Source: Raillietiella orientalis (Eukaryota). Taken from it: 64,000 nt of DNA. The stretch spans positions 682,001 through 746,000 of the forward strand of contig JAYWIR010000041.1 in NCBI GenBank assembly GCA_036172245.1. The letters run 5' to 3'. The position numbers and the translations under genes are program-made. Of this stretch, positions 6,825-62,444 are shown one piece after another (position 1 is the stretch's first letter; every line of letters begins with the position of its first letter). A model generated the notes under the pieces. That model was given only the letters and a program-made list of their open reading frames with translations. It was not told where the DNA came from and did not search any database.

Positions 6825-7994
6825 CAAATTGTCATGACTGCTTGGATTTATATTTTGCAGAAGTTAATTGAACTCCAACAACTAAACCTCAATGATTGAC
6901 TTCTCGTGTTATGCTTACAAGCTAATCCGTCCCTTAATAAATTCAGCCCCCCATGTTTTCTGTTTCGAAGCTTGGTGCAGCATTAACAGACATCTTTGCA
7001 GTAGCATATTGTTTTATACATTAGCTGAAATGATTCTTAAACAAATTTCTAAGAACAGTACGCATAATTGTATTTTCTATTTTTACTAAATGATTAGAAA
7101 TGAAGAAATACTTTGAAACGAAGGAATAATTTGTAACAGTGTTCAATTCACGGTGGAAGTTTGTATTCAAGTTTGTTCTTTTAAACCAAAGCAAGCAAAA
7201 ACTGATGCTATTAGCAGCATTTCAGATTGTAATTTAGAGTTTAGGAATTCTAAAGAATGGATAACAGTTGAAAACGAATTGACTTGCCTTCAAAAAAATA
7301 TGCTCTTCTAGAGAGAGTGAGAAATTGAGAATGCTATACAACTCAATTGCTTATTGCTACGTAGCTTGCTGCCAAAACGAAAAGTTTCTGCTTTTCTGGC
7401 TACCTAAAAATCACTCCAGAATGTGTATGATTACTTTCAAATTGAAAGTGGTTTAATTACTGCATTAAGTTAGATGTAGCCAGCATCTAACTTTAGCGGC
7501 AAATTTCGTCGCAAGCAGTAATTATGCATATAATATCCTTGTACTTTAGTTTTCCTTCCAGCAGCTCGTTAATACATGCAGTTCTGGTTAATTGCCTTCC
7601 AATATCTGTGATCTTGCGACCATTGAGGCAGGTTAACGATTTTTAGCACTCTTGTTTCACTGCTTGCATTGACTTTTGGTGGATGCACAAAATGTATTTT
7701 GTTTTTTGATGTTAAAAAATTTAATTTCTATGTAGCACTTCTAGGTGGACAATTGGATTTGCATACTTTTGTTTTTGATTTGCTACCGAGATCCTATAAA
7801 CAGTATATGTATAGATAGAAATGCTTTCAGTTTTTCTTTTTATTTGTTCATTTATGAGCCCAGAACTGTTAATGCAGTTTCAAGGGCCAGCTGATGCAGT
7901 CTATGCATTAGTGACCTTGAAGAATTCACACTGCAAATTAACACATGATTAACTCTTATGGATCTCATTTTCTAGTAAATATTTATAAATTTCC

Positions 7995-9777
<1,783 letters not shown>

Positions 9778-10723: not shown

Positions 10724-11217
10724 TTATCGTCTTGCAGCTGGAGTCCATGCACCCCTCGCCACGGCTGCAGCTCCTCTTAAAGCCATTAAGCCTCTTGCTC
10801 GTCCTCTTCCTCTTGCAGCTAATAATACAGAAATATTATTGTATATTTACAAAGCTATGCTGCAATTTTAACGATGAAGGCAATGAAAGTATATTCTATA
10901 CCTTGAGCTCTTAAAATAGCAGATTTCCCTCTTCCTGCCGTGCCCGTACCCTTGCTTTTTATATTCTTAAACATTGGTGCGTTCTTCAACATATCTGGTA
11001 GGACAAGAAATCGTATTTTCGATCCTCTTATATAGATATTCTCCAGTTGGGCCACTCTCCCATCTCTATATGTGACGGTAACATTTACCATCTGACAGTT
11101 CATATTGTCTTCAGCTTCTATTAATTTGCCTCGGTAGACCTCTCCTGTGTTTGTTTCACAAGATATAATGTGCCCTTCGGCCTCGTGCAACACTTTTACA
11201 GGCACACCAATGGACAT
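10724..11217 (-). CDS. SNRPD3: Small nuclear ribonucleoprotein Sm D3; exons 11217-10902, 10818-10724
   Basis: [43 protein letters not shown]...[21 protein letters not shown], followed by an RG-rich tail [10 protein letters not shown]... in the second exon. Confidence 0.97.
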
Positions 11218-12161
11218 GATAACTGCTGCAGACACAAACGAACTTTCAATCCCACATATGCAACAGCAGCAGTACCACTCGCTATTCCTCCTACTCAATT
11301 TAACAAATTCAAATCGGAACTGTATGACATAAATTCAGTTTGCCTAAGTCCTCCCATACTTGCCATGCATTTACAAATGTTAACGTATATTTTCGCATAA
11401 ACACATACATAAGTTATATAATACGAAGCAGTCTAAAGGAAATTTTCAAACACATATAACAAATGTAACCAACCAAGTTATATATTTTATTGTAATATAA
11501 AGGAATTGCAATATACACAAAATAATTGGATTTGATTTGTATGTATATAAATATGCTCTCAAGAATTGTATATGTGATTAAACTTGAGTCAATTTATTAA
11601 GCAATCAAAGTGTAAGCGACACTGATGGATTACCTAGTAAACGAGGAATATATTCTGTAGGAATATAGCTGTCCTCTGTAGCGCTTTGTTTCGATGCCTG
11701 TCAGAATAAATCTTAACATAAGTTCAAATCGAAAAACAAATCATCAAGAAGCAGAATTATAAGTTCTCCTAATTAAGGTGCCAACGGTGGTTTTCTTTAT
11801 TGAGTGATCATATCATACTTATTATCTTTAGTATGGTTTTCAAATGTTAAGTATTCTATGAATTTTCATAGTCTGAAATAAGGCCATGTGATTAGAATAC
11901 TTAATCGCATAAAGCGATGTAATGTAATACCAGAGCATGTACGAGAAGAAAGAAACGATTCTCTGCAGCTTCAGAGGAATATGAAATTTGCACGTGTTTA
12001 GTTCAATGGATGATCAATTCGATTAATGTATTAAAACATAGGGATAATAATAACTGTCACTGTATTCAGATTCTTCATTGCGGTTTATTTTCCCAAATAG
12101 CTTTCTAATCCTCCCATTACATTGCAAACAATTCAAGAATTCTCTTTTTCTTTTACTGAGC

Positions 12162-16194: not shown

Positions 16195-17024
<830 letters not shown>

Positions 17025-26855: not shown

Positions 26856-29441
26856 TCAGTGTTTCTTGTCTGCAATCATTCTAGAATAGTATTGCACATT
26901 GATAGTTTCCTTCATTGTGGAAGCCAATTTGGGAAGTAATTGTACATGATCATCTACACATTTGACACTACATGTTTCAAAGTCAACTTTGTATGTTTGC
27001 ATCTGAAAATAGAATCATTTGTTTTCTGCAGAATATAAGCTTTCACTTGAAACACTACATCAACATGGGTTCAAATACCGATTTATACTTTACATTTCTT
27101 ATTTAAATACTTCACAGCTAAACTACAAAAATTTCATGTACAAAAAAAAAAGATAAAAATGTAAATGTAATCTTTGGTGGCGATAATTTTATTATGTGCA
27201 AGTACAATTCCAAAAGAATAAAATGAATGCATCATTGTTTTATAAATGTTACCTGAGATGAAGTAGTTTGAAGTGATACTTGATCTTTGATTTTATCCTG
27301 ACAGCTCTGAATACACCTATGCAATCTATCCTGAAATGTCCTATTTTCAATTCGCCTATTCAAATAGAACAACAATAATTACTGAGCGGTCTTAAAATTG
27401 CTTAAAAAGTTTTAAAACATTAACACTCAATAAGTTGTAATTAGTTCATAGTAAAAAAACAAAAACAAGAAAAAAAAAATTTGAAGTTGAAAAGAACTTG
27501 ATATTTCAACTTCATATTTTCACACACTTTCATACACTATGGTCATTTGTGGAATTCCCATAACACCAACACTGGGTGACTTTGGAAATCATGAATTTTT
27601 ATATAAAATATTGGAAGAAAACAATGCACGACATGTTTACAAAAAGTGGCATATGCAAAGACAAGAATTATGGAAGCAAGCATAAGCTGCTTATGCTAGC
27701 ATTTTTGCCATTGTATTATTTTTGGCACTCTTACTTTGAAGTAAGCATAACAAAATGGGGAAAAAAAATTAGCAACCTTGGCATCAAATTGCAGTCAGAT
27801 TTATCAAACTGATTTTCTAGTGTTGTAACCTCCCCCCCCCCCCAAATAAATATCACTAAACATTATCAAAAAATACAAGAAAGTTTTTAACCCTATATGC
27901 AAACATTCATGAGCACAAAAAAAATTCTAAATACTATTTATGCATTTGAGTGAATGATATTATCTGAAATTGGGAACACTTGTTTAGGTGAGAATAACAA
28001 AAAAGCTTGATCACTAAGTCAATAACTAATCTAATCATGAGGAAATGTCAGAAATTTGAAATACTTCATTTCATTCTTTTTTAAAGAAGAATTGGAAAAT
28101 AGTGTAGCTATGTTCAAAAAACTACCCAACTGTATTGAAAAACAATAACACACAATGTGCATATTGGTAGCATGATAAATAAAGGATGGATGTGCTCAAC
28201 AAATTAATGAACAAACAGGATTTGCCTTCAATTAAAGAAGGCAAAAATTTCCTCACTATGTTTTATGTTCACACATCTTCCTTAATCATACTTTGTTTAA
28301 CTGATAAATGAAATGCATTTTAAGAATTTAAATTAATTTCCATGTTTGGTACGTACTGTTTTATTTCACTTGCACCCTGAACCATACAAATACATACTCT
28401 GCACTAAGAGTATGCTTTTGTATGAAGTTAACTGTTACACTACTCATCATTTCAATGAGTAATGTAACACTCATACCTCATTAAAAATGTGACTTTTCAG
28501 GAAATCAGAATCTTAAGTGGGTTTCCTTTTTAATAAATGTCTAGAACACTAATAAAATACTAATACATATGTAAATATGTATCATTGTTTTCATGTATTT
28601 TATACTACATATTTGTCCCAGGAGTTATATTATTCCCCTTTCAGTTTTATTATGAAGTTTTCACTGCTTCTGTGAGATCTTTACCCCTGAACACTTACTT
28701 TGTTTTGTTTTCTCATTAGGAGTTACTGGCACATTATACAAGTACAGTATATTGTACTCTGAATGTCAAAGGTACAACTTTTAAAATGGAGCTCTGAAAT
28801 GTTTTGAATGGAAAACCTGACAAAATTTCACATGGTTAACAGATACAGGTGTCCAATGTCTTTTGGTTCTTAAAAACGTAACTTTGCAAAAAAAAACACA
28901 AAAAATTAAAATAACCTCGTTATTTAGAATTATTTGTTTTCCGTATCAATTTAGAAAGCCACGTGAGATGTGACACGGTTTGCTGCAGACAGATGGCCCT
29001 TACATGTGTTTTTATCCATTGAAAACTGGGATGACTTTATTAAGTCAAAAAGAACCATAATAATACAAAAGCAAATACAAGACGAATTATTTCTGCAATG
29101 TCGCTAGAATTTTAACTAACCTGTAAATGCCCTAATTCATTTTGTACGTATGCCTGAGCTTGACTCAAGGGTTGGGAGCATTTGTCCACACACTGGCTTA
29201 CTTGTTCAAGAGTGCTGTCATTATTCTCAAGGCAGGCAGCAGAACAGTAATGCATCATTGCCTTAAAATAAAGGCACCCAATCAGTTATCAAAATAGGTG
29301 CAAGTAACATTGTTTAATATGGATGAAAAGGCGAATGTGATATACCTGCATTTTCCTAAAGTATGATTTGTCGAGATCATTTATTGTGATATTGACAGCA
29401 TCTTCAATTTTATGCTGAGCCAATTCGGTTTTCGAAGTCAT
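26856..29441 (-). CDS. FAM136A: FAM136A-family protein (twin CX3C, mitochondrial intermembrane-space type); exons 29441-29346, 29261-29121, 27330-27253, 27002-26856
   Basis: Spliced translation MTSKTELAQHKIEDAV...YFRKMQ|AMMHYCSAACLEN...QCVDKCSQPLSQAQAYVQNELGHLQ|DRLHRCIQSCQDKIKD...|...CSVKCVDDHVQLLP. It shows four CX3C motifs and phase-0 introns. Missed by the ORF track. Confidence 0.93.
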
Positions 29442-29582
29442 CTTGAAAGCTGCTTCGATTTACAGCGAAACCTTCGGCACTGCGAGTGAACGCTACCATC
29501 CGCTCCCTGCACACTTCAACTCCGTGGGAAGCAGGGATTCCAACGTGCTCGTGCCTTACACAACCTTCCCCCAAGCTTCCCA

Positions 29583-29590
29583 CTTTTATA
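29583..29590 (-). promoter_or_regulatory. Candidate TATA box of FAM136A
   Basis: TATAAAAG on the minus strand ~140 nt upstream of the ATG, at the edge of a CpG-rich segment. Confidence 0.4.
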
Positions 29591-30323
29591 AAGCGAGGAT
29601 GTGATTGCAAATTACTTTAGGAATGTTAAATTTAATAAAAACCACCACTCTGAAAATAAAAGCCTTGTTGGTTTATGTTAATTTTGTGTTATAGTTTACG
29701 CAGCTTCAAGTATCTGAAATTGGAATTGATTCTGCTTCAGAAATTTAGGTAATGTGAAATGCTTTTAAAATGAAATTTGTCTTTATTTAAAACATGATTT
29801 CAGACCACACGCTTACATTATTTTGAAGTTATTTTAGAATAACACGATTAGAATTTGGTATAAAAAATAAGGGCAGCAAGTTTTGGATTTTAGGCACACT
29901 AGGCAATTTTTGCATTACTACGATTCGAAATGAAATAGAAATAACTATTGCCAATTATGTTTGGGTTAGGTACAAAAGCTGCTATTTTTTCCAGTCATGT
30001 TTAGTGATAGCAAGAATATATGTGATTTCATGTTTTCAAACCAAAATTAAATTTGAAGACTCAGACACTTTGAAGCACTTCAAAGATTCTTAAATCAGAA
30101 AACATCGGACGAATAACGGGAGAAAAGTTAGTTTCAATGAAATTTTGTCTTGTGATCAAACCCCACAAAGCAAGCGACTTCTAAACTTCAGCTACATTGC
30201 ATGCATTGGCTGGATCAACTCGCTTTTCTTTTTAATCCACCTTTTATATTTCCATCAATGTAGAAAAGTATTACATACGAATATGTGCCATAACTGCTAT
30301 TAATGAATACGAGTCATATTTGA

Positions 30324-30674
30324 CTAAGTGAAGATGAAAAAGAGCTTGGAACTGCCATTGTTGATATAGGAGGTGGGTACACTGCGATTGGAATTTTTAA
30401 AGGAGGGAATTTTATATATTCAGACAGCATTCCAATTGGTGGTATTCATATCACTCGAGATATGGCTTATGGACTATGTACAAGCATAGAACATGCAGAA
30501 CGCATAAAAATACTGTATGGTAGTACTATCGTGACTTCAATAGATGAAAACGAGTATATCACAATGCAAAATAATGAAAGTGATGAACCGACCCAAGTGC
30601 TCAACTCTGAACTTGTTGCCATCATAAGAACGAGAATTGAAGAAATACTTGAACTAATAAGAGAGCAATTTTAA
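30324..30674 (+). pseudogene. ftsA: Internal fragment of bacterial cell-division gene ftsA, Wolbachia-like
   Basis: 116 open codons: LSEDEKELGTAIVDIGGGYTAIGIF...IPIGGIHITRDMAYGLCTSIEHAERIKILYGS...IIRTRIEEILELIREQF*. These carry the FtsA phosphate-2 (VDIGGG) and P(I/V)GGxHIT.D / AERIK motifs. No introns and no native start. It closely resembles Wolbachia FtsA as I recall it. Confidence 0.92.
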
Positions 30675-30828
30675 TGGTCTCCCTTCCCTTATTGCTGACA
30701 GGACATTTGTTTCCAGTTCTTTATAATCTACCAATCCGGTTGTTCTATTTGTTATTCTTTGAATCATATATCAAACCTCCTTTCTTTATACCAATTTATT
30801 ATTTTTCTTTTCGGTTTGACACACTTCC
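30672..30828 (-). mobile_element. 5' end of an IS256-family insertion sequence (Wolbachia-type), truncated
   Basis: Minus strand: putative terminus GGAAGTGTGTCAAACCG at 30828, Shine-Dalgarno AGGAGG (30781-30776) and ATG at 30767. It encodes MIQRITNRTTGLVDYKELETNVLSAIREGRPL, matching the N-terminus I recall for Wolbachia IS256 transposases. Cut off at the ftsA junction. Confidence 0.8.
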
Positions 30829-30840
30829 TTAAACGTTCCC

Positions 30841-31642
30841 AGCCTGTTTAAAATCTTCGTAACAGGAGAGAAATGAAGGAGAGGACAATCATCTGTAAGC
30901 TAGTGTTGAGTTTCCGCTTGCAGTTTTTCCACAATCGCCTGCACTTTTCCAACCAAGAAAAAGATCTCAACAACCCATCTTTTCGGCAATACTACTACAT
31001 TCGCACCAATGATAGCTTCTATTTGTGTTGCAAAGTTTTCTCCCGTGCATCAATCAGTGTGTTGTTGACTTCAGAGAGCTTTGCACTGTGCTTTAGCATT
31101 TTCGACCATTTTCACAGCACTGCTACGGTCATTTGCTTCTGCCGTTGTTACATAAATTGCATGTGGCAAACCTTGTGTATCAACTGCGATATGGCGCTTT
31201 ATACCTGAGGTCTTTTTACCTGCATCATAGCCCTTTTTTAGCAGTATCTGCGTTTTTAACGCTTTGAGAATCAATTATACAGAAACTAGTTTTCTCTTTC
31301 CGACCACTGCTGATACGGACCTCTCCAACGAATTTTTTTCAAGACTAATTCCAACAAGCTTGGCTCTTCTCCATTCTTTTTACTCCAAACTCGAAAATAG
31401 TAATATATGCTCTCTCATCTTGGAAAACCCACTGGTAACATCCTCCACTGACCGCCTTTTTAGACGTTCAACACTCCACAAAATACGTCATACAAATCAA
31501 GTTTTCTTGGTTTCGTTTTCTTCTTGCTACTCTCCAAAATTGCTCTCGACTCACATTACTTGGATAACTTTTCTGCATAGATAACCTCATTATTAATCTA
31601 TGCTTATTTTACCTCATCTCTTCGGGATTTTAAACAGGTTCT
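30841..31642 (-). mobile_element. Decayed IS5-family (IS1031 group, ISWpi1-like) insertion sequence
   Basis: Terminal inverted repeats AGCCTGTTTAAAATC (30841-30855) and GATTTTAAACAGGTTCT (31626-31642). OrfA starts at ATG 31578 (MQKSYPSNVSREQF, KKKTKPRKLDLYDVFCGV, QWRMLP), with an A7 slippery run near 31333-31339. OrfB has IIDSQSVKNADT, GYDAGKKTSGIKRHIAVDTQGLPHAI, VLPKRWVVE and WLEKCRRLWKNC...LLRRF* (stop 30848). Several frameshifts, stops and deletions. Confidence 0.93.
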
Positions 31643-31779
31643 TAGAAGGAGAAGAGATCAAAAAAGTTCTTTTTTAAAAAACTTAAGGTATAATATAAAT
31701 ATTTGATATCTTTTATAAGGAATTCGGCAAAAATTTGTTTAAAATGTTTCTTAAAAACATTTTCTTATGAATGATATAA

Positions 31780-33700
31780 GGTAGTATAATAAACAGCTGC
31801 GGTATTTTGACTGTGCTAAGGTAGCATAATAATTAGCTATTTCATTGATAGCATGAATGCCACCATACACCTTACAAATCATTCCCGCCCAATTCAAGAT
31901 CAAGGTAACTCCTTTGTGAGCTGATACGTGAACTATGAGTAATTCTGTTTCCCAATTTTCGGTCTCTTTGAAAGATACTGACAAATGGATGACTGATAAA
32001 TAAGACTGAAGATAGTAAAATAATAGGATGATAAATAAGATGATTAAATAACCTTGGAGATTCGGTGAATGCCCGAAGTGCTAAGGAAATTTTCAATAAT
32101 ACAATAATTCTTTCAAAAGCGTATTGTGTGAGTTGATATACTCAAAATCTAACCGAATATCATACTATGTTTATTCGTTTGCCTGTGACTTAAGTGACAC
32201 AGCCCAAAATCATTATCAGACCTTACATTTACGAGAGTAACCGAATGGACTTTCGGTAGAATAAGAATGGAGTTTTGATTTTTTAAAAGTTAAAGAGTTT
32301 TTATTTTATAATTCCGATTCCAACACCAGAAAGATAATTTTGAAATGAGACCGATTTTTTTTTTGCCATGATCTCACCATTGTATTCTACTGGAAACTCA
32401 TCTGAAGCACACACACTTCAAATGAGTAAGAAATCACAGTCTTTGTGAATGTCTTCGTGATGTGACAACGCACGAAAGACTCGTGCAAGTCATTACAAAG
32501 TTGATTATGAGGTGATTTTTGAAAGGCAGTACATTTCGAGAATCCTCGACTTTTTTTGGCTGAATGATTGGTGGGACTGATTACTTGCTTGAATAAGTTA
32601 AAGCTTAACTCATCCATTATCTCTAATAAATTTAAAGGGATGGAGTGAAAAACACTATCAGCATACGATTACTTCCTTCGTTATCAATGTTTGCATTCGG
32701 CGCCCCAATGCAATATGCCTTCTGGTAAATATTTCTCCGAGAAAGGCTGAAAAACACGCAACATTACATGCACGAAAATACTGTAAGATCCGGAAACATA
32801 CAAAATCATTAAATCGACATTTTTCCAAGAGATTGGGCATTTGAAAAAATGAAAACAAAATCAGTTTTAATAAAAATCTGCTAAGTATCAACTGCCAGGC
32901 GCAAAACATTATTCAACGATGACTTCAGGATAGAAGGAAATAAACCATATTAGATTGTAAGCACAGGCATATGTAATTAGTGATACGGAGACTACTCGAA
33001 GAGTAGAAGGAAATTCTTTGATAAAGGGAAAGAACCAATAAGTTCGCAGATAATGGGGAAGTGACAGCAATGTCGAACTGAGATTCTGAAAAATAGATTA
33101 ACGGTTTTGCTTCACATCAGTAACTAAAAAAACGATCCGGACAAGAGGATTTGGAATCATTCATACCTCATATACACAGCTATGAATTTACAAAAAAATC
33201 TACGTTGATGAACGGTCTATTACAACGACATCATTGAATGTAATGGAAATAATAAAATAAAAATTCCTATCAAGAAAAATAACTCAAAAGTAATGGTGCA
33301 ACGAGTAATATTTATAAGGTTGCCCAAATTGAAAACTGGTAAACAAAAAAAGGCGTTCTAATTTTTTGACCAAGGACGAACAATTCAGATGTGATTTATC
33401 CAAGCATCAACAGAGTAACAGCTCACTTTCATTAAAGGTCTTACACATGGTCTTTCACATTGAAGGTCTTACGCATGTAATTACAGAATTGGTTTTTATC
33501 TATTTGGAGGCTTTCACATGGGAAAAGCGACACATTTGATGTGAACGGAAAAAATCGAATAATTGCAAAGCTACCTTCAAACCACATTAGGCATATTTGT
33601 ACAGGGAGAGATTTCTGTATTAAATAGAATCGAAACATACGTCCACCTCTTTAGTTTTCTTTTAGGCACAGGTAGGCAATCATTTATAAAGTCCAAGTCC
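31780..33700 (-). mobile_element. Decayed non-LTR retrotransposon remnant (RT plus RNase H-like)
   Basis: Minus-strand fragments in order: VDVCFDSI*YRNLSLYKYA*CGLK..LFDFF (cf. D..KAFD.V.H..LLYKL...G), LKSSLNNV / FCAWQL, then KISLALRAF, HPFVSIFQ..LGNRIT and VHVSAHKG (cf. RNase H WVPAHxG). Confidence 0.45.
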
Positions 33701-37100: not shown

Positions 37101-38031
37101 TACTACCAACATAAAAGGACAACATAAGTTACAATTTAATCCTAGCTTTGTAACCAATTTTCAAATACAAGACTGAGCTGGGTTGATATCAAGTGTTAGA
37201 TACAAAATGCTACTTTATTTGGAAACCTTGTGGATTTTGTGCCAAGATATATACTCGATATAAACTCCTACCATTCAGAAGAATGCATAGAATTCTTCTA
37301 ATAAGAAACACCAGTGAGCAAGTCATATGTAGATAGTCAAACTTACATTCCAAAAGTAAAGCAACATTCGAATGTAATTTTAACACTGGCCTTTGAAACA
37401 CCTGAACTTTTGAAAAATAAAACCAAAGTACAAAACAACGAAAGAAAAAATGCTGGTGCAAAAATAAAACAGAAAACCGCGAAACTGAGAAATGTACGTA
37501 TGAAATTATCACTAAAAGAATCAATGTTCTGTCTTTTGATTAAGTAAAATTTGGACCCGAAATAAAGGAAAGAAATTGTACACAGATTACCACCTATTAT
37601 ATTAATTGAACGTGCACTCAAATCATTTTACTCAAGATTTATGAATTGCAAACTTTTTGATTCGAACGCTTTTAGATTTTCTAAGTACTTACATTTCAAG
37701 AGCTTATTATACATTAAATAATTGTTCATTGTGTCTGCCACTACTTTCGCAACACCTTCCTCTTCAAATTCTACGTATGCATAGCCTTTGCTTCTACCTG
37801 TCTAATAGAACAAACCTGTAAACTATTGTAATATGCTGAACAATTGGCACATACCTTTCTGCTTTTTGCCAATCGCAATCGCATTACTCTACCAAATTGT
37901 GAAAAATACTGCTTCATTTCACGCTCATAAAATCCATGAGGAATCTGTTTTAAAATAATAACCCGTGAGTCAGTTTTTCCGGGATTCCCGGATAATAATA
38001 ATTTGGATCTATGCACCTTTGGCTCGCTCAT
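34105..38031 (-). CDS. NIFK: MKI67 FHA-domain-interacting nucleolar phosphoprotein / Nop15-like RRM protein; exons 38031-37855, 37801-37693, 35257-35049, 34587-34465, 34416-34105 (true start may lie further upstream)
   Basis: [76 protein letters not shown], then ...KLKSLGIDY and a basic low-complexity tail. Frame-consistent GT-AG introns. Confidence 0.9.
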
Positions 38032-41000
38032 TTTTCGCACTTTACGTTTTGCAATGCACTATCATGCGTAAAGATCACATTTTCAACTACAAGATGCACT
38101 ATTACCAAAGCAAATTATTTCGAAACTTAGTTCAGTGATGAATAAGCTACTTCAATATGCATCATTCAAATTAGTGCATCATTACCTATTAATTTGTTGG
38201 GAAAATAAACCATATGGAAGTTGATAGAATTTAATCCAAAAGCTCATTTTTTATTCAGTAGTAGTAAAGAATGAATTTCAGTAAATTATGTTTGCTACAT
38301 AGAATCAAAGTACAAGGCATAAAATAGGTAGCGTAATATACTAACTGATATATAGATATGAACTGTTACTACTTCGATTTAAAGTAAAATTCATAAATAC
38401 ATACTTGTGAAAGGGAAGCATCAGAAAAGCGGCTCAATTACGTTCTTTCAAGGTTATTGTTGATTCATTAACTCAGCATTCATCAAAATATTGTGTCATA
38501 TTATTATCTGTTTATCATTAAGTGGTAATGAAAGGAAACAGATATTATAATTTGAGTATTTTACAGTAGCAAACAGTCCTTTTACGAATAAATGTGGACA
38601 GAGCATAAAGCCAAGGATAGAGATGTAAAGACTTTAACTATTACTAGAAAGACGAATTAGTTGAGAATTCAAAATAATTGGAATTCATATTATCTATATT
38701 GAGGTATGAAGTGGTAGATTTCAAATAATTTGTTTGCAAAGTAAACTCAAAATGTTTAGTAAAGCAATTAATTTTATTAATTGGAAGACACCTCAATAAA
38801 TGTATTTTGAGATTTTTTCGTATAACACAATTATTTTGTTTTTATTTCTTTGGTGTAAAAGGTATCAAATCTCTCAAAACAATGTACTCGCTTAGCTACC
38901 AGCATTAGACGTGCCAATTATCTGCAAATAGACAAGGATACTGCGTCCGATAAGAACTGAAGCTATATAAATAAGAGCTGAAGCTGCTCTTCGGTTACTA
39001 AAAAGCAAAGGAAAACTGTGCACTTAAAACAGAAAAGTAAACGCTTACTTCAGAAAATAAAAACAATGGATGAACGAAAGAAGACACGCTTCAAATTATC
39101 AAGACTTTCAATTTAAAAAAGTTATAAACAAGTTTACCATATGTAGAAAGTCATTAGAGACTGGAAATTTGATAATGTCATTTATGACGAATAGGAGCTG
39201 AAAGTTAGAAAAAAAAGGGATTCAGAAAGAAAGATCTAACACGACCATAGAAATAAGGATGGAGAAGAATCAACTTGACACTAATAATTTAGTAATCTGT
39301 AAGCCTTATCTTTGTATAAATAGCAGTTTAAACATACAGTTCAACATGATAAAAGTGGACATGCAGGACCTGATGAATACTACTTAACATATAATAAATT
39401 ATCAGGAAAGAAATCTATTAGTCATACAATAAAGGGATATTTAAAAATTTAGGTAATGAATCAGTTTGTGTAATTTTTGCATTCGATTATGAGAATCCCA
39501 GAAATGACGATTAAATATGTCTTTGCTTTTATGGTTTCTCAGGAGATAGGAAAAAATAAATTTTATTTTTCTTCTACTTCCTGATAAACTTCATTTATGA
39601 AGAAAAGCACGTGAAAAATATGTAGCTTCAAAGAAAGAGCTGACAATGTTCACTGTATTCAGAATCAATTTTTGTTCACAAATTCCAATTGTAGTCAGAA
39701 AAGACATGCTAATAAAGATTAATAATGTAATGCTAACGAGCGTGCATAAAATGATATACATTTGGGTATGATTGATACATGTATTACAATCACGAAAACT
39801 GCTTTTGAATATGTTGAAAATTGCCAGCTTTATATATGGCAACACATAAAATGATGGAGATAGATAGATGGATAGATAGATATAGATACATAAATACCGA
39901 TATCTCTTTATCTTTAGATTGCAAACTCTACAGGGAGCCTTGTTCATTTTCTTTTCTTTAATCTTTGATTCTGAACTATTAAACCAATATAGTCCTGTTT
40001 CTTTTCCTATTGCATCTAAACGAAACGTAACTCCGTTCCCGGTTAATGAACTATAGCTGATTTCTGTCGTTGCAGAAAATCTAAAGGGTCTTTGTTCTTA
40101 AGTATTCAACTTGTGTCACAACAAAATTAATGTAAAACAAAAGAGACAGAATGAGAAATACCCTGAAACCTCTTGGAGAACGTACTCATAGATGACATAA
40201 TCAAATGTGCATAATTTGCGCAATTCCGGACGAGAAAAATTGGTTTCCCCTTTGTTTTTCACGTTTCTCTTATTTCCAGTCACCTGTTCAAAATTGTGAA
40301 AGATAATTTATCAAATCCTCTTTTCAATGACTATTTTTATTAACAGCATCATGAAAAAATCTACTTTGCGCCTGGATACCTCAATAATATTTCGGTTAGA
40401 GTAAGGACGTGTCTGAATTTAGCCCAAAGGTCTGAGTTCAGCAACTTCGTGATTTTCTGTGAATGTCTTCTCTTTCACATAATAAGGCAAAAGGATAAGT
40501 GAAACGTGCAATGAGGAATTAGGTGACATAATAAAGGGATAAAGACGGTACTGGTCATTTTGGTTATATTGATCTCTTTTAACATTATAATCCTACAGAT
40601 CAAGCTGAACATCTGGAAAACTATCTCATTCCTTATGACCTGCTGAATGGAATCTTGAGATACAAAGTAAGCAGACGTGAATTTCTTTTCTTTCATCTAT
40701 TTGACAAAGAATCCCTTTAACTTCCTATGGACCTTCAAATTTTCAAGGTGACTGAGGTAAACTGAGGCAGCTTGGAATCATTTAATTGAAAAAGAACAAA
40801 ACCAGTAAAAGTGGCTTTTCCCGGACTCTCAGAGGAGAAAACATTTATAATGTTAAACGCTTACACATTCTTCGTTGTTATGAAAAAAAAAATCAAAAAT
40901 ACTCAACAGGGGAAGTAACCAAGAAACAAATATTTCTGCCCCCAGTGTTCAAAAAATTATAACAAGCGTAATCACCTTTTCCTTCACTGTGACATGAAAA

Positions 41001-41046
41001 CAACGGAATTCTTTCTGAGCTGAAAGAATCCATTGCTTCGTTCAGA

Positions 41047-42099
41047 ATGAATAGTCTTCACGTCCACATTCCTCAGCAAATCAACCAAGTGCGTTGCCGA
41101 TTGGATCACTCTGCAGATGGTTCCACACCTCCATGCTTATACAGTGAAAAATTCTACGAGAAACCAAAAGCGTTTGATACAAAAACGAACATCCACAACT
41201 TGTCGTATGAACCTGCACATCACTACCGAGCTTTCCCTGAAATGGGACCTTATGGACATGTCTGGAACAATATGGCAATGAATCCCAATGCGTTTGTTCA
41301 ATATCCTTCTTACATGGGAGACCAGCAACCTCATCAGAGGGATTTGCAATGCAATCCTTATGGCTCATATGATAATTGCATGAATTATTATCCTCAGTGT
41401 GCTTGTTGCTGCATCCAGAATTTGGAACAAGGTTCCATATGCGAGAGTAATCCTCCCAAAGAACACAACACCAATGATAATCAGCCGAACTTGTGTTCCA
41501 GTGTCTGCTGTGGCGGCTCTATGAATACAGCACCAGTAAGCTATCCCTTACCGAACTTGCCTCCGGTACGAGGAAATTGTCGTCCCCAGGAAGTTAAAGA
41601 ATACATCGAGCGTAATCGACCGGATCGAATGGTATGCAGCCCGCTGCTAAAGTTGAGGAGTAAGCATAAGTGCAAGAAATCTCACACAAACCAGAACTGT
41701 TGCCAATGCAAACCGACCGATGACAGGAAAAGTGAAGTGCACAGTCCAAATCAAGAAGACTCTAAACTGGAGGAATCGGCTCAGAGGAAAACGCCTTCAG
41801 AGGATAATTCGATGGCGGCAAACACTAAGATCGAAATAGGAGATCCTCCTCTTGTGGACGCCAGAGACGAGGATCCACCGAAACCCTCATCCCCGAAAAA
41901 TCCCGTGACAATACCAAAAGCATCAACAAGAATCAGAAGTGATTCTATACCCAAATTCGATTCGAACGCGGATGAAAATCAGGACGAATTTGTTACAAAC
42001 TTCAAGTTTCTCAGAGAGGAATTTTCCAAGTTCTGCGAAAAAGCTAAGATTAGAAGTCTTCTTGAGGATTTTATCAAAGAAAACCAAATATCCGAATGA
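41047..42099 (+). CDS. Intronless 350-aa protein of unknown function (Cys/Pro/Asn/Gln-rich, largely disordered, helical C-terminus)
   Basis: 1053-nt ORF, much more GC-rich than its flanks. The ATG is preceded by an acceptor-like TTCAG|A. No family recognised. Confidence 0.6.
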   Translation: MNSLHVHIPQQINQVRCRLDHSADGSTPPCLYSEKFYEKPKAFDTKTNIHNLSYEPAHHYRAFPEMGPYGHVWNNMAMNPNAFVQYPSYMGDQQPHQRDLQCNPYGSYDNCMNYYPQCACCCIQNLEQGSICESNPPKEHNTNDNQPNLCSSVCCGGSMNTAPVSYPLPNLPPVRGNCRPQEVKEYIERNRPDRMVCSPLLKLRSKHKCKKSHTNQNCCQCKPTDDRKSEVHSPNQEDSKLEESAQRKTPSEDNSMAANTKIEIGDPPLVDARDEDPPKPSSPKNPVTIPKASTRIRSDSIPKFDSNADENQDEFVTNFKFLREEFSKFCEKAKIRSLLEDFIKENQISE

Positions 42100-58300: not shown

Positions 58301-61300
58301 CATTTCGAAGGTCAATATCTTGTGTGTCTTACTGTGAAAGATTGCAACATAATGTATGATGATCCCATCGCAAATGTCTTTATTAGTAATAATCATTTTC
58401 GTGTGGTTCTTCAACATTGGTTAATGTCCAATTGTTAAGTAAGTAAGTAAGTAAAAAAAAAAAAAAAAAAAAAAAAACCTTGAATTGCAAGAATAGTTAA
58501 ACTGCATGTATTTGAAATTGTTCGTTTTTCAGCGACTTTTTTATCCATTTAAGTTAATCTACATCGTGTATTTACTTTCGTTGCTTTTCAGTTGGACCAG
58601 GTGAAGATGAACCTGATGAAGCAACAATGGTAAGTTTAATGTATCACTTGTGTAAGTGATGAGGAATCTATCAGAGCCGGAGTGTAATAATAAACCGTGC
58701 AAGCAGTGCACCACCCAATCGCAGGCAGCAGTGTGTGGCATCTAAATCAACATCAGTCAATACGTTGCACTCTGCAGGTGAGTGGAAGCTGGAATAAGGG
58801 TGACTGGACTTTTTCTTACTGCCTTTTGGTTGTACTACATTTCTCTAACATACTCTTCATCTAAAGCTTCCAACATGGCTAAACGTTGTCCTTTTGTGCG
58901 CAAGTCTGCTTCAGTAACAGTAGCAGGTAAAATCACTTGAATGCACTGTGCTTGAAACTTCGTGAGTGCTCTGGAATTAACTGCATTAAAAATCATTTAG
59001 GTGCTGTGGATGAAGAAACTTTCATGCAAGCATTCAGAGATGTTCCCAAAATACAAATATTTACCAGCAGAGAACTGGAGGAACATTTGAGTCAAATAAA
59101 GGAGATTATTTCTAATTTGTCAAATGATTGGAGTAAGCGTGTGGATGCTGTAAGTATATAAAAATTAGAAATTCAAACCTGATCATCACCATAAAAATAC
59201 TTAGCTAAAGAAATTAAGGTCCTTGGTGTTAGCTGGGGCTGCTGAATACGAAGAATTATGGCCCCACCTTCGACAGCTAGAATGTGCTTTCCAACAGACT
59301 ATTCGTGACTTGCGCTCACAAGTGGTTCGTGAGGCATGCATTACAATTGCTTTCATGGCCCAAGAACTAGCAGGCCGTATAGAACATTTTGTTGAGATGC
59401 TTTTACCCTATCTTCTGAATTTAATCAGCAATAGCGCTAAAGTCATTGCTACCTCTGGCATAGTGGCTATTCGCTTTATCATTGCTCATGTTCACTCAGC
59501 CAGGTTGTTGCCTATACTTGTGCAACACCTGGATTGCAAGGCTCGTGAAATTCGGCGCAGTTGCTGCGAGTTCCTATGTCACATACTACTCATGTGGCCT
59601 AGGCATGTACTGGAGAGGCATCTGGCTCTTTTACAGGATGCTGTACACCGAGGCATAATAGATGCCGATCTTGAGGCTCGATCTCATGCGCGCAAGTAAG
59701 TTGGTATGCCATTACAGTCAGAATGTATTCTTTGTGAAGAGCCTTCTGGGCATTTGCAGATCATTTCTCAGAACAAGCTGATCAGCTCCTTAACTCTTTA
59801 GATGCAACACACAGAAAAACTGTTTGTGGTGAAGCATCATTATCACAGGATTGCAATACTGCTAAACCACGTCCTACACTCATGTCCAGTTCTCAAGAAA
59901 GCTTAAGTCGTTCCAAAAAACAATTTGTGCCATCAACTAATGGAGTCCTATTTAATCAAACTGCTTTACGTTCTAATAGTGCCATAGATTTGGCAGCTGC
60001 CCAGAGAGCTCGGGCTAGAGCTGAATATGCAGCACAACAACGCAGTGCACTGAGAAGCAACATGAAGCCATTTCTGTGTGAGTACAATTGTATTTTTGAA
60101 ATTCCATAACTGGACTGTTTATTGTAGCAAGATCCCGTACCACTAATTCAGAACGTGCTGCTCTCAACTCCAGCAGCAGTCCAGGCATGTCCCAGTCACA
60201 ACGTGAGTTTTTTTATCATCATTTTATAGTAAAAAATTTCTGAGATAGCAAGCAGCAGATCTGCTTCTCCCTCATCTCGTCTTAGCTATGCCACATATTG
60301 TAGTCCAGCAAGCACACTAGGTGGAAATCGAGCCCGACGTCGTTCTGGAATACCTCTTAGTACAAACAGTTCCCGTGAACCAAGTCCTACACGTAATGGA
60401 TCACTAAAAACTAGTCGGTAATACCTGAAAATTTTGTCTCCAAAAGGTAAAGTCCTTAATAGATCAAAATCAATAACTTCTCCTGGAACAATGGATTGGA
60501 ATTGTGTGAAATCACCCTGTCTACGTGACATTGAAAGGGACATGGGAAGCTTGACATTGGTAAATTACACCGAACATTTATTTAGAAATTTACAAATCTC
60601 TCAGGGATCAGGCAAGCGATCAAGTGGAGCGGGTGAGCATCCTAACAGCAAGGAACTCCATTCCGAGTGGGCATTTGGGCGTCTTCCAGATGTGAGACTT
60701 ATATTTTTCCTTTCTTTTGTACCCCCTATGTGTATTCAGAGAAAGCATCATGATAGAGATTCTTCGTTTATAGATATTCTTCAGGCTTGCCGAAGTTCGA
60801 ACTGGAATCACTGCAAAGATGGATTGGTTGCATTGCAACGTTTATTGCATCATGGCGGGGTTCTGTCAGCAGATGAGCTGAATGCAGTCACTCGCTGTTT
60901 AGAGATCATGTTTGCCAATACACATGCTAGAGCACTTCCGTTGTTGCTTGAAGCTGTGGGTGATTTACTTCGCTGTTATGCTAGACAGTTGCACGATTGG
61001 CTTCCAAATCTCTTGCAGTGCTTATTTCATGCAGCTGATGCTGAACTGTCAGCCCCAATGCTTCATCCCATTCTGCGTACTTTGGACCTTGTGAGGTAAG
61101 GAACTGTGATTTAATGTGTACTAATAATTGTTGCAGAAAACTGTTTCCACCTGGATTGCAGTTGGCAGCTGTCTTTCACTTCCTTTCTACTAGTCCGTTT
61201 GCTAGATCATGTGTATGTGCCTTAAACCACCTACATACCTTGATGCCTCAGCTCACTGCTGCTGACATTCCTCTGGATGCAGATCGGACATTACAATTGA

Positions 61301-62444
61301 TCAACAGCTGGAGTCAAAATGAATCATATCCCCAGCTCCAGCAAGCTGCCATTCAGGCAATAAAGGGACTCAAAGAGCTGGAGCCAGATAATCATTGGAA
61401 GAGTAGTAGTCCTGCTTCCCCACTGTCCCATCTGAGCCACAGCTATTTAGAAGGCAGTCACAACTACCAAGATGTATTTCGTTCACTTAGGAAAGCAACA
61501 GTGGAAATTCAGAATTATCCATTCGGACAAACACATTCTGTACCAAGAGATTTGACGGCCAATCAGCTTTCCTTGGATTTGCCAAGGAACAAACTCGAAT
61601 ACTCTCGACCTGGAACGGTACAAATAAATCTGAAGCAAGCAAATATATATATATTTTTTTCTAGTTATTGGACAAAACAGTGATGTCGGCGACACCAAGA
61701 GACAACTTGTTAAATGGGAAGACTTCTTGCACTGTTTCCCAGGTTCTTAATGATTTGAGTAGTCCAGGCTGCTTGCGAGCAGGACTTACGCAACTTTTAA
61801 AACTGTGTAAAGTCGATAAAGCTGCAATCGAATTGCAACCAGAGTTCCGAAGATTATTGAAGCTTTTGCTAACAGAAGGACTTCATGACAAAGAACCATC
61901 TGTGCGCTCCCTAGTATATGCATGCTTGACTGAAATGCTGTCGCTCAAGCCACTGCTTGATCAGTTCGTGCTTTTTACAGAGCTGCTCATATTGAAAGTT
62001 TTGGAAGGTCACAAAGACAGTGAGAAAGATGTAGCACGTGCAGCTGAAACTTGTGCTACTACTCTTGCTTGTTGTCTTCCACCTGAGGAAGTAGCTCGTG
62101 TCCTTAATCCCATCATTCAGACAGGTGAATTTCCAATCAGTTTAGCTGCCATAAAAATGATGACACATTTGTTTGAGCAACACAGCAAGGAAACAGTGGC
62201 ATCTTTGGTAGCTATGGTCATGCCAAGCTTACTCCAGGTATTTTAAGTAATGACTGGACTTTGATATGTTTTCTAGGCATATAATAATGACGAAAGTTCC
62301 ATGCGGAAGTCTGCTGTGTTCTGCATGGTGGCCCTTTACAACATTTTAGGGGAAGCTCTCCGCCCATATCTGCACGAACTTGGTGGCAGCAAACTAAAAC
62401 TGCTTAATCTGTATATCAAAAGAGCGCAGGAAGGCAGTCGATAA
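48136..62444 (+). CDS. CLASP: CLIP-associating protein (CLASP/Orbit/MAST); exons 48136-48318, 48362-48467, 48515-48689, 48733-48909, 48956-49047, [9.5-kb intron], 58592-58629, 58675-58777, 58867-58926, 59001-59149, 59205-59695, 59740-60077, 60128-60202, 60249-60417, 60463-60559, 60605-60691, 60740-61095, 61137-61617, 61665-62237, 62277-62444
   Basis: TOG1 (SWLHNSNFKV, DRLGDAKEVVRE, LVEVYRHVGERMR), TOG2 (GAVDEETF, DLRSQVVREACITIA, NSAKVIATSG), LRSNSAIDLAAAQRA, SQSQPSSRSASP, an SxIP motif RSGIP, and the C-terminal CLIP-binding domain ESSMRKSAVFCMVAL...KLKLLNLYIKRAQ. Confidence 0.95.
50028..50163 (+). CDS. Candidate alternative first coding exon of CLASP (short, TOG1-less isoform)
   Basis: ATG 50028 opens MASLDPSVWGKEEEWILLFDNLLKRESFNRRSERVMRPCRMPTGK, ending in the phase-1 donor AAG|GTAAAT (alternative CTG|GTAAAG at 50157, also phase 1). 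This is the phase required by the exon at 58592. Confidence 0.5.
55339..55368. repeat. (TC)15 microsatellite
   Basis: Direct reading of the sequence. Confidence 0.95.
58436..58477 (+). repeat. (TAAG)4 followed by an A25 tract
   Basis: Direct reading; resembles a retroelement 3' tail. Confidence 0.8.

Follow-up and report, generated by a model that had tools for sequence, protein, structure and literature searches.

Fragments of Wolbachia DNA lodged in the chromosomes of arthropods and filarial nematodes, known as nuclear Wolbachia transfers (NUWTs), are described as non-functional and neutrally evolving, as nesting within Wolbachia gene trees and as being assigned to a supergroup by phylogeny (PMC12693587). 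The survey of 22 filarial genomes presented in that paper reports their neutral decay and their use as fossils of past infection. Another Wolbachia-derived insert is 'Sequence X' on chromosome 7 of the butterfly Aphantopus hyperantus, where a copy of ISWpi4 lies between two Wolbachia-like stretches and the IS was proposed to have carried these flanks with it by transposition (PMC10083226). Among the ISs of Wolbachia, ISWpi1 encodes an IS5-family transposase in two ORFs, and a mean divergence among strains of 0.22 % is given for its consensus (PMC2515875).

Here, an insert of about 1.4 kb was analysed that lies in an animal contig, within a stretch of 64 kb that is referred to throughout as the window. 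It has in common with the NUWTs described in PMC12693587 that fragments of Wolbachia DNA sit in a host chromosome, that they nest in Wolbachia gene trees and can be assigned to a supergroup by phylogeny, and that they appear non-functional and neutrally evolving; unlike that survey of 22 genomes, the present case concerns a single site. As in 'Sequence X' of PMC10083226, the insert is short and includes IS sequence with Wolbachia sequence on both sides, though the IS families differ, being IS481 in the former and IS5 and IS256 in the window. A further difference from 'Sequence X', as it is presented there, is that transposition into the host is not supported for the window, because the ftsA and IS256 pieces are joined at a point within each of the two genes and the IS elements have been truncated or have decayed. 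The IS5-family element in the window resembles ISWpi1 (PMC2515875) in encoding an IS5-family Wolbachia transposase, with two ORFs in the live copies of both, but it belongs to another group within the IS5 family. Its identification as ISWpi1 was considered and rejected, as neither of the published PCR primers matches the window at up to 3 mismatches.

From the sequence comparisons set out below, we consider it highly probable that the insert (30320-31717) is a small nuclear Wolbachia transfer (nuwt) that came from a supergroup-F-type donor, present at some time in the germ line of the animal's ancestors, and was captured in the chromosome. It is a further case of the well-documented transfer of DNA from symbiont to host.

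Four Wolbachia-derived pieces between host genes

The window contains no N, and spliced eukaryotic genes are found on both sides of the insert, which is contiguous with host nuclear sequence to the left and to the right within the contig. The insert itself is a gap-free mosaic of four pieces, namely part of ftsA, the 5' end of an IS256-family element, an IS5-family element and the spacer upstream of sucA, and each piece is truncated (Table 1). Wolbachia provides the top match for every one of them, and as the E-values against Wolbachia go down to 1e-150 and below, chance similarity is excluded; the matches establish a Wolbachia origin for all four pieces. With a 1405-nt query representing the insert, matches at E 1e-20 were obtained in 57 of 60 Wolbachia species genomes, via ftsA and/or IS5. 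When the 64-kb window was compared, in four blocks, with five Wolbachia genomes, no Wolbachia matches were found outside 30320-31717, and the sequences flanking the insert occur only once in the window.

Table 1. Features of the insert and of the surrounding host sequence (positions in the window)
Feature	Position	Strand	Details
FtsA gene (ftsA), internal fragment	30320..30671	+	~codons 189-305 of ~412; both ends missing; frame open, 0 indels
IS256-family element, 5' end	30673..30841	-	~170 nt; terminal repeat 30815-30841; GGAGG 30776-30780; ATG 30767; first 32 codons
IS5-family element, decayed	30843..31645	-	~803 nt vs ~860 nt in live copies; transposase frame broken by eight indels
7 nt between IS5 end and sucA spacer	31646..31652	.	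filler or diverged donor sequence; from alignment to wStri and wTis
sucA upstream spacer, non-coding	31653..31717	+	65 nt; homology fades by ~31725
FAM136A-like gene (DUF842), four exons	26859..29441	-	PF05811 on three exons; start codon near 29441
DUF842 exons with Pfam matches	29115-29285, 27235-27378, 26859-27014	-	stop-to-stop frames
Nop15/NIFK-like RRM gene, two RRM_1 exons	37631..38058	-	~6 kb right of insert
SHMT	7989-9544		Pfam, stop-to-stop frames
LSM	10855-11334		Pfam, stop-to-stop frames
Ras	16298-16699		Pfam, stop-to-stop frames
CLASP	59205-62246		Pfam, stop-to-stop frames

The homology of the ftsA piece to Wolbachia is ungapped over 352 nt, with edges that were set by the alignment. 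An open frame of 116 codons lies at 30324-30674 (plus strand), and an internal ATG in it gives 70 aa. This frame matches the Pfam FtsA model PF14450 (E 2.4e-23; 83 bits, above the cut-off of 31.8) and also TIGR01174 (E 2.6e-31), where the score of 109 bits does not reach the cut-off of 175.85 for a whole protein, since the fragment covers no more than positions 189-301 of the 371 in the model. The piece is a fragment of the FtsA gene and not an FtsA gene. At the nucleotide level it is most similar to the metagenome-assembled genome (MAG) Spi319_bin9 (93.2 % identity), followed by wPaur (92.0 %), wTis (91.2 %) and wMoz (90.3 %), with wCon and wStri at about 85 %.

The IS256-family piece is broken inside the transposase gene at its junction with ftsA, and what remains includes a GGAGG motif 8 nt before the ATG. 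A 37-codon ORF (30654-30767, minus strand) was not matched by any Pfam or NCBIfam model when the piece was examined alone, and the assignment to the IS256 family is by proxy, via a homologous copy in one Wolbachia genome (G048) that extends into ORFs matching Transposase_mut (PF00872; E 1.3e-39 and 5.7e-26). The piece is 82-84 % identical to multi-copy elements of Wolbachia genomes. A 281-nt query made up of the end of ftsA, the IS256 piece and the end of the IS5 element found matches in 40 of the 60 Wolbachia species genomes at E 1e-5, with 97 further matches beyond those listed.

In the IS5-family element, the minus-strand ORF at 31071-31274 matches DDE_Tnp_1 (PF01609) and NF033580, and in live relatives the NF033580 match spans both of two ORFs. 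The closest copies, which are about 860 nt long and 99.8 % alike, are in genomes G015 (at least seven copies among the matches listed) and G043, and the window element shares 93.1 % identity with them over 793 aligned columns (55 mismatches). For the sucA-spacer piece, wStri, wPaur, wTis and wMoz each have a single matching site, at 90-92 % identity, and one 58-nt match in a further genome (G006) is 100 % identical. The Wolbachia gene that lies just downstream of this spacer in wTis matches NF006914, 2-oxoglutarate dehydrogenase E1 (sucA), with an E-value of 9e-249.

On the host side, the insert lies between the 3' side of the Nop15/NIFK-like gene and the promoter side of the FAM136A-like gene, and no gene is broken. 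The FAM136A-like gene was recognised from its DUF842 exons, DUF842 being what we take to be the FAM136A family, and its first exon was identified from reading frames, which puts some 880 bp between the start codon and the left end of the insert. Compared with the PDB, this first exon gave no match. For the RRM exon, the best solved relatives are C1827.05c of S. pombe (E 8.5e-12) and yeast Nop15 (E 2e-8), with human NIFK matched weakly (E 0.0018); Nop15 and NIFK are presumably orthologues. Rfam families were matched neither in 29000-33000 at E 1 nor in the whole window at the gathering score, and the two Wolbachia loci around the sucA spacer likewise had no Rfam match.

Two observations concern the more distant host sequence. 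For one SHMT exon, the best of the 120 hits listed come equally from arthropods, vertebrates and other groups, at 66-73 % identity and with none nearer, and in a quick SHMT tree the window lies on a long unplaced branch. A search with the 368-aa open frame at 40993-42099 found no match.

The first-pass annotation had proposed a Wolbachia-like island in an animal chromosome, consisting of pieces of ftsA, IS256 and IS5 between FAM136A and NIFK, and the island is borne out by the finding of four Wolbachia pieces between spliced host genes. All three of the pieces it listed are present where it placed them, the flanking genes are confirmed by the DUF842 exons and the Nop15/NIFK-like RRM gene, and the IS256 5' end with its Shine-Dalgarno sequence is indeed there, the GGAGG being in place and the homologous copy leading into PF00872 ORFs. 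The IS5 element was correctly described as decayed, with its eight indels and broken transposase frame, but only one of the two TIRs attributed to it is complete (31626-31645), the other having lost its last ~5 nt at the 30843 end, which abuts the IS256 piece. The extent given for the island, 30321..31645, needs to be revised; the insert is slightly larger, and the fourth Wolbachia piece (31653-31717) is beyond its end.

Decay of the insert and its probable standing as host DNA

To describe the changes in the ftsA piece, the window was compared with the consensus of the eight F-type rows with which it groups in the tree described below. Fifteen substitutions are private to the window, 11 of them non-synonymous and four synonymous (pN/pS 0.79), and several are at residues that do not vary across the 23 Wolbachia rows of equal length that were compared. 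When seven F rows are compared in pairs (the long-branched wMmer being excluded here), there are 143 non-synonymous and 243 synonymous differences (omega ~0.17), a ratio that differs from the 11 and four of the window with a Fisher p of 0.006, in a test that involves only 15 changes and takes as reference the consensus of eight strains rather than a formal branch model. Within these small numbers, the private changes look neutral, or nearly so, as would be expected if constraint had been lost.

The IS5 element carries eight private indels, made up of deletions of 19, 3, 2, 7, 33 and 2 nt and insertions of 1 and 7 nt. At the indel rate of the IS5 element, the probability of finding zero indels in the 352 nt of ftsA is about 0.03, and this fits the picture of decay less well. 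Either the IS5 element had partly decayed while it was still in the donor or the pieces are not equally old, and decay in the donor is the simplest reading.

In none of the Wolbachia genomes examined are the four pieces next to one another. The distance from ftsA to the sucA spacer is about 349 kb in G005 and, with contigs assumed to be circular, about 142 kb in G043 and about 500 kb in G033. Among the matches listed in the 60 Wolbachia genomes, none spans the joint between the IS5 element and the sucA spacer; a few of the IS5-end matches extend 15-30 nt past the end of the IS and none of them reaches the spacer piece. On contig 93 of G003, an IS5 end is found next to some 26 nt that look like the terminus of an IS256-type element, and the remainder does not align. 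From this arrangement, the IS256/IS5 joint, at least, may pre-date the transfer.

Truncation, near-neutral changes and donor loci that do not adjoin fit a decaying insert in host DNA and not a chimera with a live symbiont. The alternative, that reads from a live Wolbachia were wrongly joined into the host contig during assembly, might be entertained given that the sequenced animal may well carry Wolbachia and that G+C is slightly raised over the insert (0.36-0.41 vs ~0.30-0.34 nearby). However, a chimera of this type should be intact, syntenic and close to 100 % identical to a live strain, whereas the insert is a 1.4-kb mosaic of four truncated pieces that are not neighbours in the Wolbachia genomes examined, its identity to the nearest live sequence is no higher than 93 %, and ftsA, an essential single-copy gene, is cut at both ends and has a near-neutral N:S ratio. 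The insert is also placed centrally in 64 kb of contig sequence that contains no N and has host genes on both sides. An assembly artefact is, hence, very unlikely, and the features of the insert fit neutrally decaying nuclear Wolbachia DNA rather than contamination.

Even less likely, in our view, is that the insert is real but has been put to use, either as the source of a putative transcribed FtsA-derived peptide or as a piece of the FAM136A promoter. Its open frame of 116 codons with an internal start for 70 aa, and its position, with the FAM136A start codon about 880 bp downstream, would be compatible with such a role. The open frame needs no explanation, as the probability that it would stay open by chance after 15 random substitutions is about 0.52. 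The pN/pS of 0.79 and the changes at residues constant in Wolbachia argue against a selected peptide, as does the loss of both ends of the actin-like fold from the fragment, and there was no match to an Rfam family in 29000-33000. We infer that the insert probably has no present function.

Placement of the donor

Relatives of the ftsA peptide were sought by scanning one genome per prokaryotic species, which gave 399 candidate stretches and 87 relatives, and the best 80 of these 87 were kept. Among the 80, the top 25 loci (70-89 % amino acid identity) comprise 23 from named Wolbachia and two from MAGs labelled 'Rickettsiales bacterium', and the loci that come next are from Neoehrlichia (59 %) and Anaplasma (50-58 %). 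In a protein database, 44 of 334 candidates were matched at E 1e-30 and those that are named are all Wolbachia FtsA save one from Anaplasma. The best identities there are 87-88 %, and a donor closer than 88 % amino acid identity was not found among these 44 proteins.

A maximum-likelihood tree of ftsA was built from 29 rows, namely the window, 25 Wolbachia or MAG rows and three outgroups, over 348 columns, with the loci from more distant bacteria (L029-L080) left out. The window falls in a clade of nine rows (support 99/98) together with wPaur, wMoz, wTis, wMmer, the two Rickettsiales MAGs and two Wolbachia MAGs, one of which is from Paracimex. Assignment to supergroup F is reported for wPaur and wMmer (PMC9903615) and for wMoz (PMC10195089). 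Within the clade, the window branches as the sister of the remaining eight F-type rows (93/90) and has an end branch of 0.05, part of which may represent divergence in the donor lineage and not decay in the nucleus. This topology hints at a donor positioned beneath the eight sampled F-type strains, though little weight can be placed on a tree of only 352 nt.

Another Rickettsiales or Anaplasmataceae symbiont as the donor can be set aside as having a negligible probability, for though two of the five closest ftsA records are labelled only as 'Rickettsiales bacterium' MAGs, both of them lie inside the Wolbachia F-type clade, the Wolbachia rows are split from Neoehrlichia and Anaplasma by a branch with 100/99 support, IS elements of both types occur in multiple copies in Wolbachia genomes and the spacer piece matches the region upstream of sucA in Wolbachia.

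The first-pass annotation had made its reading depend on best matches in Wolbachia or other Rickettsiales and had suggested an ftsA tree as the means of placing the donor in a supergroup. The top 25 loci are indeed Wolbachia or Rickettsiales MAGs, and the tree puts the window inside the F-type clade. Its view of the island as the fossil of an infection is likewise supported, by the near-neutral changes in ftsA, the eight private indels in the IS5 element and the nesting of the window within Wolbachia.

A more far-reaching proposal, which we regard as doubtful, is that the insert is the sole surviving trace of a Wolbachia lineage that branched off earlier than the sampled supergroup-F strains separated from one another, in a host that would be fast-evolving and poorly sampled and may no longer carry the strain. 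If this were true, the known host range and the age of the F-type radiation would both be extended.

Formation and significance of the probable nuclear transfer

If the insert is a nuclear Wolbachia transfer, as we favour, it could have arisen when germ-line cells in which bacterial DNA had been set free took up this DNA at a chromosome break. The capture would have been by end-joining repair, with either several fragments taken up at once or a larger piece taken up and later trimmed by deletions. The joint between ftsA and the IS256 piece is not a transposition joint because it is inside both genes. The IS256, IS5 and sucA-spacer pieces were possibly adjacent in the donor since both of the joints between them are at or near IS termini, and this part of the insert may already have been contiguous before it was captured. 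The finding in G003 of an IS5 end beside an IS256-type terminus weakens the detail of several fragments having been ligated, and leaves integration unaffected.

Inserts of this kind are common and mostly inert, and the general picture of DNA transfer from symbiont to host is unchanged by this one. The value of the site would rise only if the host lineage proves to be one from which no F-type Wolbachia is known, or if its placement below the sampled F strains is upheld with longer fragments. For annotators, and for those who apply contamination filters, it is a caution, as this stretch would need to be treated as host DNA and not as symbiont DNA. For the biology of the animal, the insert would serve as a marker that its lineage once carried a supergroup-F-type Wolbachia and, given a whole genome and related species, the site could be used to date the association between host and Wolbachia.

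Live relatives of the fossil IS5-family copy

The closest relatives of the IS5-family copy in the fossil, those in the Wolbachia genomes G015 (locus L094) and G043 (locus L095), which represent two species-level genomes, are 99.8 % identical to one another, and at least seven copies of this element are present in G015 among the matches listed. Together, this near-identity and the copy number suggest that the element has recently been active or has been exchanged between strains.

A possible IS256-type terminus adjoining IS5

On contig 93 of the genome G003 (locus L116, approximately 1050–1190), one end of an IS5 is directly adjoined by approximately 26 nt resembling an IS256-type terminal repeat, but similarity to the IS256 element does not continue into the stretch beyond, which gave no alignment with it. 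The 26 nt could be a solo terminus or belong to a related element. Most contig breaks in the G003 assembly fall at this same IS5.

Host and putative host coding sequence outside the fossil

Coding and putative coding features in the window
Feature	Position	Strand	Remarks
SHMT exon (host)	8855–9544	+	Database comparison and quick tree
Open frame, 368 codons	40993–42099	+	Low complexity, rich in cysteine and proline

The open frame, which had no match in a Pfam search and no relative among database proteins of 202–644 residues, could represent either a host exon peculiar to this lineage or a piece of a longer gene. In a quick tree the SHMT exon lies on a very long branch, and it shares no more than 73 % identity with any of the 120 database proteins listed, which suggests that the host belongs to an animal lineage that is fast-evolving or thinly sampled.
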